Source: Escherichia coli
GTDB taxonomy: Bacteria; Pseudomonadota; Gammaproteobacteria; Enterobacterales; Enterobacteriaceae
Length of the DNA stretch: 64,000 nucleotides
NCBI RefSeq assembly: GCF_003334385.1
Contig: NZ_QOWN01000003.1
Strand: one strand, 5' to 3'
Position numbers and translations under genes: made by a program
The notes under the pieces: model-generated
What the model saw: only the letters and a program-made list of their open reading frames with translations
Told to the model about the DNA's origin: nothing
Database searches by the model: none
Part shown: in pieces, positions 34,355-37,786 of the stretch
Position numbering within the stretch: the stretch's first letter is position 1
Layout: every line of letters begins with the position of its first letter

Positions 34355-35167
34355 ATGATCATTACACAAGCAGACCTGCGAGAATGGCGTATCGGAGCGG
34401 TGATGTATCGCTGGTTCCTGCGCCATTTCCCACGCGGCGGTAGTTATGCCGATATTCATCATGCACTGATTGAGGAAGGATATACGGACTGGGCGGAGAG
34501 TCTGGTTGAGTATGCGTGGAAAAAATGGCTGGCGGATGAAAACTTCGCGCATCAGGAAGTTTCCTCTATGCAAAAACTGGCCACAGACCCCGGAGAGAGA
34601 CCATTTTGCAGTCAGTTTGCCCGCAGCGACGATCATGCTCGCATCGGCTGTTGTGAGGATAACGCCAGAATCGCAACCGCTGGGTATGCCGCGCAAATTG
34701 CCAGTATGGGTTATAGCGTGCGGATTGGAAGTGTCGGCTTTAACAGTCACATTGGCAGCTCCGGTGAACGCGCACGGGTTGCTGTAACCGGTAATTCTTC
34801 GCGGATAAGCAGCGCTGGAGATAGCAGTCGGATTGCGAATACCGGAATGCGAGTACGCGTTTGTACATTGGGTGAACGGTGTCATGTCGCCAGTAATGGT
34901 GACCTGGTGCAAATCGCCAGCTTTGGCGCAAACGCCAGAATTGCCAACAGCGGCGACAATGTACACATCATTGCCAGCGGTGAAAATTCAACGGTAGTGA
35001 GCACGGGCGTGGTCGACTCAATTATTCTCGGGCCAGGAGGAAGCGCCGCACTGGCATATCATGACGGCGAAAGAGTTCGCTTCGCCGTCGCCATTGAAGG
35101 TGAAAACAATATTCGAGCCGGAGTCCGCTATCGTCTTAATGAACAGCATCAGTTTGTTGAGTGCTGA
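34355..35167 (+). CDS. ydhT: protein of unknown function with tandem nonapeptide repeats
   Basis: 270-aa ORF, last gene of the cluster; residues about 103-219 form about 13 tandem 9-residue repeats. Confidence 0.8.
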   Translation: MIITQADLREWRIGAVMYRWFLRHFPRGGSYADIHHALIEEGYTDWAESLVEYAWKKWLADENFAHQEVSSMQKLATDPGERPFCSQFARSDDHARIGCCEDNARIATAGYAAQIASMGYSVRIGSVGFNSHIGSSGERARVAVTGNSSRISSAGDSSRIANTGMRVRVCTLGERCHVASNGDLVQIASFGANARIANSGDNVHIIASGENSTVVSTGVVDSIILGPGGSAALAYHDGERVRFAVAIEGENNIRAGVRYRLNEQHQFVEC

Positions 35168-35178
35168 TAGCTTTACCT

Positions 35179-36783
35179 TTAATCAAACGAAAGACGCCGA
35201 CGAGCACGGGATGCAGGCTTTACGACCGCCCGAGCCATCGCCTCACCAATTTCTGCACATGCCGTAAGTCCCTGAACGAAAGGCTGGTCGTGCATCAACC
35301 AGGGCAACGCGCCGAACGCTACGCGCCCACGAATATCTTCGGGTTGCTGTAACGTATAATCTTCGCCAACATCAGGGATTTCATCCCCTGTTTTCTGTAA
35401 TTGCTCGCGTAGCCCAGGGAAAGGGATATCTTTCACTTTAAGCGGACGTTGTCCGCGGGCATCAATAAAAACGTCAAACGAGTAGCTGTTGTCTTCCGTT
35501 TTCAGGACGGTGCGCGACTCATTAATTTCCATTTTGTAGTCTTCACCGAGGGCGAGAATATGAATGATTCCCGCTTCACGTAAGGCAAGTAGGCGACGAA
35601 TAGACTCTGAAGGGATTGCCGCATAATTATCGATGAAAACCCGGGCAAGGCCTTTACTGAACCGTTTATGGTCGTGTTCATTCAGATGTGGAACAATTTC
35701 CTGTACGGCTTCATGCAGGCGCAGAATGACATAACGCCAGGGAACAGTATGTTTTTCTCGTTTATTGCGTTCGACTTCCTGGAGATTTTTTTCTGCCCAG
35801 TCAAATGGGTCGCGTTGTTTGCGCTCGGCAAACCAGGCTTGAGCAAAGGAATCGACATTCAGGCTCTCTAAGGCTATGCGTTGACTCCAGTCTGGATCAG
35901 CAAACTTGATTTCCTCTACTATCAATCTAAATACCCGATCCAAAAGGCCCTCTTCGCCTTTTTGAATCTCAGCATTTAATGCCTGATCGGTGACGATGTG
36001 TAAGGGCTCGTAGGGAATAGGGCAATAGAAATCGGCTTCGGGTAAAATACCCGTGCGCGACAACAACGTGATATTTAGCTTTTCACTTGCGTTATCGCGG
36101 TGAAAAACGACGTGTTGTTTATCATCTTCAATGAACGAACCATGCTGAATAGCCACTGCCATTGCCGCATCCAGTCCGCTCAAGGATGTTCCCATAATAC
36201 CCACGTTACACGCATCGACCTTTGCTTCCATCAGGCCTGACCACGGGCTGGGAAAATACGTTCGGGTTGCTTCTTCTTCATCAGGCCAGACGTGACCCGT
36301 GGCGATCACCGCTAAATCAAACGTCTCGCTGGGTAAATCCTGATTTGTAGCGAGCATGACGCCAGCATTTGTAATTTGCAGATCGGTAACCTGGCATGAT
36401 TCATAAACAGCCACTGCAAATTTTTGCTGTCGTGCCTGGTCTACTAGTCGTAAAAATTGATCGCGGAAATATTCGCCCAGCAGAATTCGCGGTAAAAACT
36501 GACGATCGTGCAAGGTTTCTTTTTTAACGCCATAACGCTGGAGATGGCTGTCTTCTTGCTTTTGTAGCCATTCGAGATACGTACAATAAATCGGCGGTAT
36601 TTCAATACTGGCAATATTTGCCAGCATCATTTTTGAGTTTTCCTCATCACTGTATGGCATCCCGACACCGGCCTCGTCAGCCTGCTCGAAGATAGAAATA
36701 GAAAGTGGAGTTTGTTGCTGTAGAAGCGAGAATAAGGTGTAGATCCCCGTAGGCCCGGCACCCACAATAGCAATTTTTTTCAT
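35179..36783 (-). CDS. ydhS: FAD/NAD(P)-binding protein of unknown function
   Basis: 534-aa ORF with an N-terminal Rossmann motif (IVGAGPTG); convergent with ydhT. Confidence 0.82.
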   Translation of the reverse strand: MKKIAIVGAGPTGIYTLFSLLQQQTPLSISIFEQADEAGVGMPYSDEENSKMMLANIASIEIPPIYCTYLEWLQKQEDSHLQRYGVKKETLHDRQFLPRILLGEYFRDQFLRLVDQARQQKFAVAVYESCQVTDLQITNAGVMLATNQDLPSETFDLAVIATGHVWPDEEEATRTYFPSPWSGLMEAKVDACNVGIMGTSLSGLDAAMAVAIQHGSFIEDDKQHVVFHRDNASEKLNITLLSRTGILPEADFYCPIPYEPLHIVTDQALNAEIQKGEEGLLDRVFRLIVEEIKFADPDWSQRIALESLNVDSFAQAWFAERKQRDPFDWAEKNLQEVERNKREKHTVPWRYVILRLHEAVQEIVPHLNEHDHKRFSKGLARVFIDNYAAIPSESIRRLLALREAGIIHILALGEDYKMEINESRTVLKTEDNSYSFDVFIDARGQRPLKVKDIPFPGLREQLQKTGDEIPDVGEDYTLQQPEDIRGRVAFGALPWLMHDQPFVQGLTACAEIGEAMARAVVKPASRARRRLSFD

Positions 36784-36908
36784 TGTTACTTACCTGTACG
36801 CATTCTTTCGAATTTAGTGTTATCAGATAAGTTTGGTTGAGATTTTTAGAATTTGAGAAATTTCAGACAGGGATGAAAAGGGCGCTAACCGCCCTTGATT
36901 AAATTCTG

Positions 36909-37214
36909 TCAGGCGAGTTTTGCCTGATTGATTTGACTAAGTGGCTCATTGACATCGAAAACTTTGGCGACAACTTCCTCAACGCCGAGATTTTTCAGTC
37001 GGGCAGTATGTTTTTCCAGATAGGCAAGGGCGCTTTTTTCATCAGTGAAAAGGTAGATCCCACCGGCTTCGTGGTTCTTTTCACTTTCTGTCCATACCTT
37101 CCACAGAAAACCAGGTTCCTGATTAATCGACTCAGCAAGTGGTTTAAGCTGCTCAGCCATTGCGTCGCCAAATGGGCCATTAAAAGCAAAATGAAGTTGT
37201 AACAAAGTTGCCAT
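36909..37214 (-). CDS. ydhR: small putative monooxygenase-like protein
   Basis: 101-aa ORF next to the tRNA-Val pair. Confidence 0.75.
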
Positions 37215-37321
37215 AGCGATTCTCCTTCTGATAACGCATACGAAGACAGTGTAAATCTTTTAACGTATTGGATACAGAGAAGAAACAGAGGGAAAAAGGA
37301 GAAGACCAGATTAAGAAAATC

Positions 37322-37398
37322 TGGTGCGTCCGAGTGGACTCGAACCACCGACCCCCACCATGTCAAGGTGGTGCTCTAACCAACTGAGCTACGGACGC
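37322..37398 (-). tRNA. valW: tRNA-Val (GAC)
   Basis: Reverse complement reads GCGTCCGTAGCTCAGTTGGTTAGAGCACCACCTTGACATGGTGGGGGTCGGTGGTTCGAGTCCACTCGGACGCACCA: cloverleaf-compatible, GAC anticodon, 3' CCA. Confidence 0.93.
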
Positions 37399-37402
37399 AG
37401 GA

Positions 37403-37479
37403 TGGTGCGTTCAATTGGACTCGAACCAACGACCCCCACCATGTCAAGGTGGTGCTCTAACCAACTGAGCTATGAACGC
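37403..37479 (-). tRNA. valV: tRNA-Val (GAC)
   Basis: Reverse complement reads GCGTTCATAGCTCAGTTGGTTAGAGCACCACCTTGACATGGTGGGGGTCGTTGGTTCGAGTCCAATTGAACGCACCA; tandem copy 4 nt from valW. Confidence 0.93.
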
Positions 37480-37786
37480 AACGTTGTAGGTGACAACGGG
37501 GACGAATATTAGCGGCAGAGTGGGAAGGTGGCAAGAGGCAAAACGTAATTTTCTGCGCTATTTCGACCGTTTGCAGAGCTTTTAAGCAAATTGGCTATAT
37601 TTTGTTGATTTGCAAGGGTGATTTTTATTCAGGATCGCATTTACATCTGATACAACCCAATAATTCGTGTATCAGAGTTTAAACAGAGTTGTTTGCCACC
37701 ATCTCAAATCTGTCGTGGATAAATCCTCCGTAGCCTTTACACTTAGGTAGCAATAAAGGCACACAGATGCAGCAAAGGAATAAATC

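Follow-up and report, generated by a model that had tools for sequence, protein, structure and literature searches.

The adjacent ydhS and ydhR genes of Escherichia coli: probably unrelated single-gene units, with YdhS a predicted class B-type flavin monooxygenase

The genes ydhS and ydhR lie side by side at positions 35179 to 37214 of a 64,000-nucleotide (nt) stretch of Escherichia coli contig NZ_QOWN01000003.1 (assembly GCF_003334385.1), hereafter the window, to which the positions given below refer. Our analysis indicates that the two are probably unrelated single-gene units, ydhS encoding a stress-linked class B-type flavin monooxygenase and ydhR an independent protein with a reported ABM-like fold. 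The genes, the motifs, the predicted fold, the missing linkage, and the intergenic hairpin were computed here; RpoS binding and co-induction with katE are taken from published papers. The chemistry of YdhS, its anionic substrate, and its link to hydrogen peroxide (H2O2) we infer.

35179..36783, minus strand, ydhS coding sequence (CDS), 534 amino acids (aa), ATG start (open reading frame [ORF] list)
36784..36908, minus strand, ydhR-ydhS spacer, 125 bp, containing the hairpin (sequence)
36876..36896, minus strand, ydhR terminator candidate, AAGGGCG-GUUAG-CGCCCUU then UUUU (sequence, RNA fold)
36909..37214, minus strand, ydhR CDS, 101 aa, ATG start, PF08803 family, structure solved (ORF list, PDB identity)

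The 534-aa and 101-aa reading frames that a sequence-only reading of the window had placed here agree exactly with the ORF list. They correspond to ydhS and ydhR, which have been annotated in E. coli for a long time. The pair of orphans is thus already known and ordinary, and both are among the ever fewer genes of E. coli K-12 that lack an assigned function. RefSeq labels the region as ydhT, ydhS ("FAD-NAD(P)-binding protein"), ydhR ("monooxygenase"), two tRNA-Val genes, and ydhQ. Megablast with positions 35000 to 37600 as the query gave matches in every one of the 5426 complete E. coli genomes, with 80% or more of the query covered in 5398; ydhR by itself was matched in 5424 of the 5426.

Independence of ydhS and ydhR across genomes

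A one-genome-per-species scan with an alignment of close YdhS homologues yielded 80 loci (YdhS at 62 to 95% identity); with the addition of further single contexts, about 90 related loci were considered in all. Only 5 of the 80 loci, three from Escherichia and two of the Citrobacter amalonaticus type, had ydhR no more than 10 kb from ydhS. At least 13 loci of the Enterobacter/Lelliottia type have the order mdtK, tRNA-Val pair, ydhS, and in E. cloacae the tRNA pair and ydhS are separated by a gap of 122 bp with neither ydhR nor ydhQ. Elsewhere ydhS is a single gene in differing surroundings (Buttiauxella, Klebsiella, Raoultella, Yersinia, Pantoea, Erwinia, Leminorella, and Pectobacterium), and relatives of YdhS at 43 to 50% identity are common in Alphaproteobacteria, with singletons in Sphingomonas, Rhizobium, and Frigidibacter. 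ydhR, too, stands as a single gene in unrelated neighborhoods in Neisseria, Photobacterium, and Raoultella. No conserved operon partner for either gene was found in the ~90 related loci, which bears out the earlier remark that the two have no obvious pathway context. A carbonic anhydrase (26 loci) and a weak metallo-beta-lactamase (MBL)-like protein (23 loci) were considered as partners of ydhS and rejected; both are encoded convergently and track Enterobacter/Klebsiella synteny. The gene context of distant metagenomic YdhS homologues, located on contigs of 2 to 4 kb, was uninformative.

The E. coli arrangement, in which the genes are adjacent on the same strand, 125 bp apart, and both labeled "oxygenase," might be read as a two-component system made up of a small oxygenase and a flavin reductase, or as two consecutive steps of a pathway. 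We consider this very unlikely, given that adjacency is limited to Escherichia and the Citrobacter amalonaticus-type lineage, that Raoultella carries both genes at different loci, that ydhR occurs alone in Neisseria and Photobacterium, and that the interval between the genes holds a hairpin and a separate site for RpoS holoenzyme (see below). Moreover, an Escherichia lineage that has lost ydhR keeps ydhS: in Escherichia sp. MOD1-EC7003, a clean deletion of ~290 bp has removed nearly the whole ydhR CDS (locus L013, 2056-2303), leaving the ydhR leader, the Shine-Dalgarno sequence, the last ~15 nt, and the terminator hairpin, with ydhS intact and 95% identical. The ydhR-ydhS neighborhood in E. 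coli is a lineage-specific accident at a tRNA locus, not an operon. Nor are ydhS and ydhR conserved neighbors of the tRNA pair or of the ydhY-T operon.

Three of the loci deserve mention in their own right. Klebsiella indica has, at the equivalent locus, three tandem tRNA-Val(GAC) genes of 77 nt each separated by 4-nt spacers (L049, 8000-8238). In a record labeled Chryseobacterium sp. 18061, the neighbors of ydhS (a methionine aminotransferase and a LysR regulator) are those of Citrobacter/Enterobacter-type loci from the same study, which includes Citrobacter sp. 18056; contamination, of the label or of the assembly, is probable. A single case comes from Rhizobium sp. SAFR-030, where the ydhS homologue and a convergent gene for a MOSC-domain protein (L099, 7674-8411) overlap slightly. 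MOSC proteins of E. coli reduce N-hydroxylated compounds, and such a gene would make an interesting partner for a putative N-hydroxylase.

Separate transcription units

That ydhS and ydhR are transcribed separately, as the sequence-only reading had proposed, is supported by several observations. A G+C-rich hairpin of 7 bp (dG, -17 kcal/mol; z score, -3.15), whose stability was equaled by 0 of 200 shuffled sequences, lies 13 nt past the ydhR stop codon. This likely intrinsic terminator of ydhR has a U tract that is weak, and it did not pass the stricter T-tract rule of the consensus terminator scan. The same spacer holds an RpoS-holoenzyme site, identified by genomic systematic evolution of ligands by exponential enrichment (SELEX) and given in the row "ydhR > > ydhS" of the RpoS constitutive-promoter list (PMC5493296); the consensus scan detected no sigma-70 consensus there. 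The remaining features of the locus are as follows.

35168..35178, strand not applicable, gap between the convergent stops of ydhT (plus) and ydhS (minus), 11 bp (sequence)
37215..37321, minus strand, valW-ydhR spacer, 107 bp, pyrimidine-rich (sequence)
37322..37398, minus strand, valW, tRNA-Val(GAC), promoter-distal copy, adjoining ydhR (ARAGORN; Rfam tRNA, 69.6 bits)
37403..37479, minus strand, valV, tRNA-Val(GAC), promoter-proximal copy (ARAGORN; Rfam tRNA, 70.1 bits)

The gene order is ydhT> <ydhS <ydhR <valW <valV ydhQ>, with ydhYVWXUT-type genes upstream of ydhT, mdtK past ydhQ, and a sigma-70-like promoter of valV at 37534-37505 (consensus scan). This agrees with the earlier placement of ydhS and ydhR between the ydhYVWXUT operon and the valW-valV tandem; the heading under which that placement had been given, with the two genes "flanking the tRNA-Val pair," is wrong, both genes lying on one side of the pair.

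On the tRNA side, ydhR is reported not to share a transcript with valV-valW (a statement for which that paper does not present the data), the termination of which is Rho dependent (PMC2190699). In E. coli strain B2, an IS3-family element is situated between tRNA-Val and an intact ydhR (locus L104, 2572-3785), and in several E. coli strains the 107-bp valW-ydhR spacer carries such an element with ydhR intact. Judging from feature names, IS1 or IS3 insertions split ydhS (two matches) or ydhR (one match) in other E. coli, and the site beside the tRNA pair appears to be a hot spot for insertions. On the opposite side, the 11-bp ydhT/ydhS gap has no convincing terminator hairpin (fold z score, -1.58), and for this reason the ydhT and ydhS transcripts probably overlap; ydhS-ydhT is listed among RNA-seq-supported convergent overlaps (PMC12288877).

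Sequence conservation and predicted fold of YdhS

An exhaustive search with YdhS returned 987 clusters at 50% identity (E < 1e-3), including full-length relatives down to ~25% identity. Against Pfam, YdhS matched NAD_binding_9 (PF13454; E = 5e-31) over the N-terminal 164 residues only, with no match to K_oxygenase or FMO-like, and among NCBIfam models it passed the cutoff of one only, its own PRK09897. Conservation and the AlphaFold2 model were based on an alignment of 79 homologues at 24 to 57% identity. A first dinucleotide-binding motif is GAGPTG at residues 8 to 13, where G8 and G10 (GxGxxG/A) are present in 79/79 sequences, and a second is G195-x-x-G198-[ST]-S200-L201, where G198 and L201 are equally invariant. 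Also kept in 79/79 are N56 and R99; the family further preserves E33, the segment G39-x-G41-x-P43-Y44, and ATGH at 161 to 164. A basic residue occupies positions R321, R350, and R374 in no fewer than 85% of the 79 homologues, and five further arginines, among them R94, R243, R355, and R397, are kept in the close YdhS clade. As far as sequence goes, this conservation pattern would fit a class B oxygenase with an anionic substrate.

The AlphaFold2 model (predicted local distance difference test [pLDDT], 95.4; predicted template modeling score [pTM], 0.93) contains two beta-alpha-beta cores, with predicted helices at 266 to 403, after the second Rossmann core and before the chain reenters the FAD domain. 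In a Foldseek comparison with the PDB, the top match was 8CP5/8CP2 (FzmM; E = 4e-23; template modeling score [TM], 0.74), followed by the N-hydroxylases KtzI, SidA, and PvdA (TM, ~0.5). When the YdhS family profile was compared with the PDB, flavin-containing monooxygenases (FMOs) dominated at ~1e-10, with 8cp2 at rank 12 (7.7e-8). The 8cp2 profile match is due to generic Rossmann segments, given that subprofiles covering residues 34 to 118 and 236 to 534, the latter including the helical substrate domain, miss 8cp2 (E > 10). A residue-level alignment of YdhS with 8CP2 was abandoned for the same reason; a distant 614-aa homologue found nothing in the PDB.

The data could also be considered from the standpoint of a NAD(P)H-dependent reductase or oxidase (quinone, disulfide, or ferredoxin type, or an H2O2-forming NADH oxidase) instead of an oxygenase. 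We regard this as improbable. No conserved cysteine was found anywhere in the family among the 79 homologues, hence no redox-active thiol, which speaks against a thiol-based reductase; reductase folds match over ~270 to 300 residues versus 477 for FzmM; FMOs dominate the profile matches; and the invariant Asn would fall in the position pattern of class B oxygenases (PMC10404684).

By motif, Pfam match, and predicted fold, YdhS is a two-dinucleotide-domain flavoprotein, as anticipated from the initial description of a redox-type protein with a Rossmann FAD/NAD N terminus. Assignment to a characterized family of known function, which had been named as the outcome that would overturn the orphan description, goes halfway, as far as a clear fold class.

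Possible general-stress role and catalase association of ydhS

On plasmids of Brucella anthropi and Rhizobium sp. ACO-34A, and in other Brucella species, the YdhS homologue is the last gene of a module, DUF892 (ferritin-like), catalase HPII, and YdhS, encoded on one strand with gaps of 70 to 117 bp.

Module loci: L101, 4205-8614; L103, 4206-8614; L092, 7793-11614; L067; L068; L070; L081

The E. coli proteins YciE and YciF are members of the DUF892 family. The homologues directly downstream of catalase HPII, i.e., those of Brucella (formerly Ochrobactrum), the Rhizobium plasmid, and Paracoccus alkanivorans, are 63 to 66% identical to the YdhS of E. coli. In P. alkanivorans, the catalase-YdhS succession is kept although its YdhS copy is only 68% identical to that of Brucella. 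On the B. anthropi plasmid, the module belongs to a stress island, in which FtsH, PsiE, additional ferritin-like genes, and three Hsp20 genes are also encoded. In all, a YdhS homologue is present on 49 plasmid records, mostly alphaproteobacterial, and on a Rhizobium chromosome a peroxiredoxin gene is found upstream of the ydhS homologue.

In E. coli, according to published data, a LolCDE inhibitor increased ydhS expression 7.3- and 14.1-fold, with katE in the same table at 8.5- and 18.4-fold; osmY, otsB, and other stress genes rose along with ydhS, and the authors ascribed the response to Cpx, Rcs, and RpoS signaling (PMC5105897). Collectively, the RpoS site, the co-induction with katE, and the catalase module point to a general-stress role of ydhS.

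Other reports on ydhS concern killing and proteolysis. A ydhS knockout is less susceptible to killing by the Agrobacterium type VI secretion system (T6SS), a phenotype that can be complemented (PMC7012810). Cleavage of YdhS in vitro by protease Prc was set aside as a functional lead; it is nonphysiological according to its authors, YdhS being predicted to be cytoplasmic.

The YdhR protein

YdhR is identical to the protein of PDB entries 2ASY, 1WD6, and 2HIQ, and it matches Pfam ydhR (PF08803; E = 4e-42; residues 4 to 98) and NCBIfam PRK11118 (169.9 bits; cutoff, 103). Two papers (PMC3935937 and PMC2835715) cite nuclear magnetic resonance (NMR) and crystal structures in which YdhR is a dimeric alpha+beta ferredoxin-like barrel as in ABM-type oxygenases. 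By sequence, the match to Pfam ABM, 34 residues long, falls short of significance (E = 0.14), and the YdhR family profile, when compared with the PDB, recovered YdhR itself only and no ABM protein. The "monooxygenase" label of YdhR is thus weak, given that it derives from a literature fold resemblance and from neither sequence nor assay; the description of YdhR as "monooxygenase-like" holds on literature structural grounds and fails by sequence.

The protein is strongly conserved. In a set of 19 sequences from diverse organisms (Enterobacteriaceae, Neisseria, Colwellia-like bacteria, Photobacterium, Tolumonas, and one Naegleria record) with 64 to 91% identity, 43 of the 101 positions are invariant. 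The record from the amoeboflagellate Naegleria gruberi encodes a YdhR protein that is 75 to 77% identical to that of E. coli, which would be due either to a real transfer to eukaryotes or to contamination; ydhR is also mentioned in papers dealing with horizontal transfer to yeasts. In proteomics of uranyl stress, YdhR rose ~3.4-fold together with WrbA.

Proposed mechanism and its weighing

According to the explanation we favor, YdhS would be a cytoplasmic single-component flavoenzyme in which NAD(P)H reduces the bound FAD. Reduced FAD would react with O2 to give a C4a-hydroperoxyflavin, with the invariant Asn56 as the likely stabilizing residue, and the oxygen would be passed to a nucleophilic N or S, or to an electron-rich carbon, of a small, probably anionic metabolite. 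The substrate would be held by the Arg-rich helical domain between the dinucleotide domains, a layout solved only for the FzmM-type L-aspartate N-hydroxylase. ydhS would have a transcript of its own, apparently driven by a promoter of the RpoS type, and would behave, together with the catalase HPII gene, as a general-stress gene; we speculate that uncoupled turnover of YdhS releases H2O2, which would make a catalase neighbor useful. YdhR, small, very strongly conserved, and apparently horizontally mobile, would act on a small molecule independently of YdhS.

A number of observations weigh against this explanation. The oxygenase activity of YdhS is a prediction from the model. The second of its dinucleotide motifs (GxxG[ST]S[L]S) departs from the typical form, and the equivalence of Asn56 with FzmM Asn62, like that of the Arg clusters, would follow only from residue position and the modeled fold. 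Sequence does not significantly relate YdhR to the ABM family. The RpoS SELEX signal at the ydhR/ydhS spacer is weak (3.8), and induction by the LolCDE inhibitor could proceed via Rcs rather than RpoS. A catalase gene neighbors the ydhS homologue in a single module of Alphaproteobacteria (YdhS copies, 68 to 100% identical to one another) and not in Enterobacterales. Furthermore, AZT represses ydhS 16-fold, placing it among the 25 most repressed genes, with no obvious fit with the stress picture, and basal ydhS expression is SspA dependent (PMC11228462). Finally, the T6SS-susceptibility phenotype, the only confirmed phenotype of a ydhS knockout, is left unexplained.

A more far-reaching version, which we put forward as an unlikely though consequential idea, is that YdhS founds an FzmM-like clade of class B monooxygenases, common across Enterobacterales and Alphaproteobacteria and present on plasmids of the latter, that belong to the RpoS/general-stress response and N- or S-oxygenate a small anionic primary metabolite in stationary phase, with a functional tie to catalase HPII. 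If true, this clade would make or destroy a so far unrecognized oxidized metabolite in E. coli. Apart from this idea, a substrate of YdhS, once found, would mean a new oxygenation reaction in stationary-phase enterobacterial metabolism and might explain the reduced T6SS susceptibility of the ydhS knockout. YdhS would merit study as a stress-induced class B flavin monooxygenase with an FzmM-like substrate domain, in the light of katE and H2O2; a partnership with YdhR or with the ydhYVWXUT operon is the less promising lead.

Other observations at the locus

In Shigella, ydhS is apparently truncated: a "partial" cluster of 404 aa with 496 member sequences comes from S. sonnei, and YdhS proteins of other Shigella (S. 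flexneri, S. boydii, and S. dysenteriae; AFDB entries) are 385 to 435 aa long. The short proteins suggest gene decay in those lineages. The PADLOC defense-system models matched neither YdhS nor YdhR. Positions 37198-37360 (plus strand) matched Rfam RF02194 (HPnc0260, a Helicobacter antisense RNA) at 112 bits versus a gathering score of 59. In antisense orientation, the match covers the start and leader of ydhR as well as the 3' half of valW, and it is best over the antisense of the T arm and acceptor stem, the rest being A/U-rich; as a real E. coli antisense RNA it was rejected, being probably a by-product of tRNA conservation.

Comparison with known systems

The cofactor-free ABM-type monooxygenases, such as ActVA-Orf6 and YgiN, are reported, in the papers cited above for the YdhR structures, to have their fold in common with YdhR. 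YdhR has no significant sequence relationship to them, and an oxygenase role for YdhR would be one by analogy.

For YdhS, the ornithine/lysine N-hydroxylases (SidA, PvdA, KtzI, NbtG, and DesB) and the FMOs align over ~300 to 360 residues, and their helical insertion is far smaller than that of YdhS. A different relative is HpyO of Xanthomonas, a urate hydroxylase using FAD and NAD(P)H (PMC4562309), which has the N-terminal family PF13454 (Pfam/InterPro) in common with YdhS. From this shared domain it could be argued that YdhS, too, is an HpyO-type FAD-dependent urate hydroxylase, a proposal to which we attach very little probability: domain sharing says little in a large family with many paralogues (PMC4562309), the neighbors in E. 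coli are ydhT, ydhR, and tRNA genes, and no recurring neighbor beyond local gene order was seen, most neighbors being unnamed and urah/urad not having been searched for specifically. The comparison with HpyO covers domain family and neighborhood only, and no purine-catabolism neighborhood is evident at ydhS.

The closest structural counterpart is FzmM/CreE (8CP2/8CP5). In FzmM, a helical substrate domain is wedged between two dinucleotide domains, an Asn is placed above C4a of the flavin, and aspartate is bound by a cluster of arginines (PMC10404684). The YdhS model matches this three-domain layout, with 477 residues aligning to 8cp2_A, and the spacing of FzmM Trp51 and Asn62 is similar to that of YdhS Tyr44 and Asn56. 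The aspartate site of FzmM comprises R13, R266, R276, R409, R412, N413, R416, and R577. The superfamily link between YdhS and CreE is not new, since the UniProt domain name "HpyO/Asp monooxygenase CreE-like," which already covers the YdhS N-terminal domain, carries it.

On the strength of the shared layout, YdhS might be taken for an FzmM/CreE orthologue that converts L-aspartate to nitrosuccinate, and hence to nitrite or 3-nitropropionate. We find this highly improbable. Identity is 17 to 18%, YdhS is ~65 residues shorter, the failure of the two subprofiles to detect 8cp2 extends to more distant YdhS family members, which do not match it either, and the only NCBIfam cutoff reached is that of PRK09897, the model for YdhS itself. 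No biosynthetic cluster or conserved partner such as nitrosuccinate lyase was found in the ~90 loci: beside ydhS there was no recurring neighbor beyond synteny in the 80 scan loci, and the gene was a singleton in nine further contexts. YdhS would have the FzmM architecture without thereby being an aspartate N-hydroxylase, and the missing biosynthetic neighborhood argues against orthology. FzmM/CreE belong to secondary metabolism, whereas ydhS, lying outside any biosynthetic cluster, has the traits of a housekeeping gene of the general-stress type in Enterobacterales and Alphaproteobacteria. On the basis of the structural model, the most fitting description of YdhS appears to be that of an FzmM-like flavin monooxygenase of class B, rather than that of a generic "FAD/NAD-binding protein."

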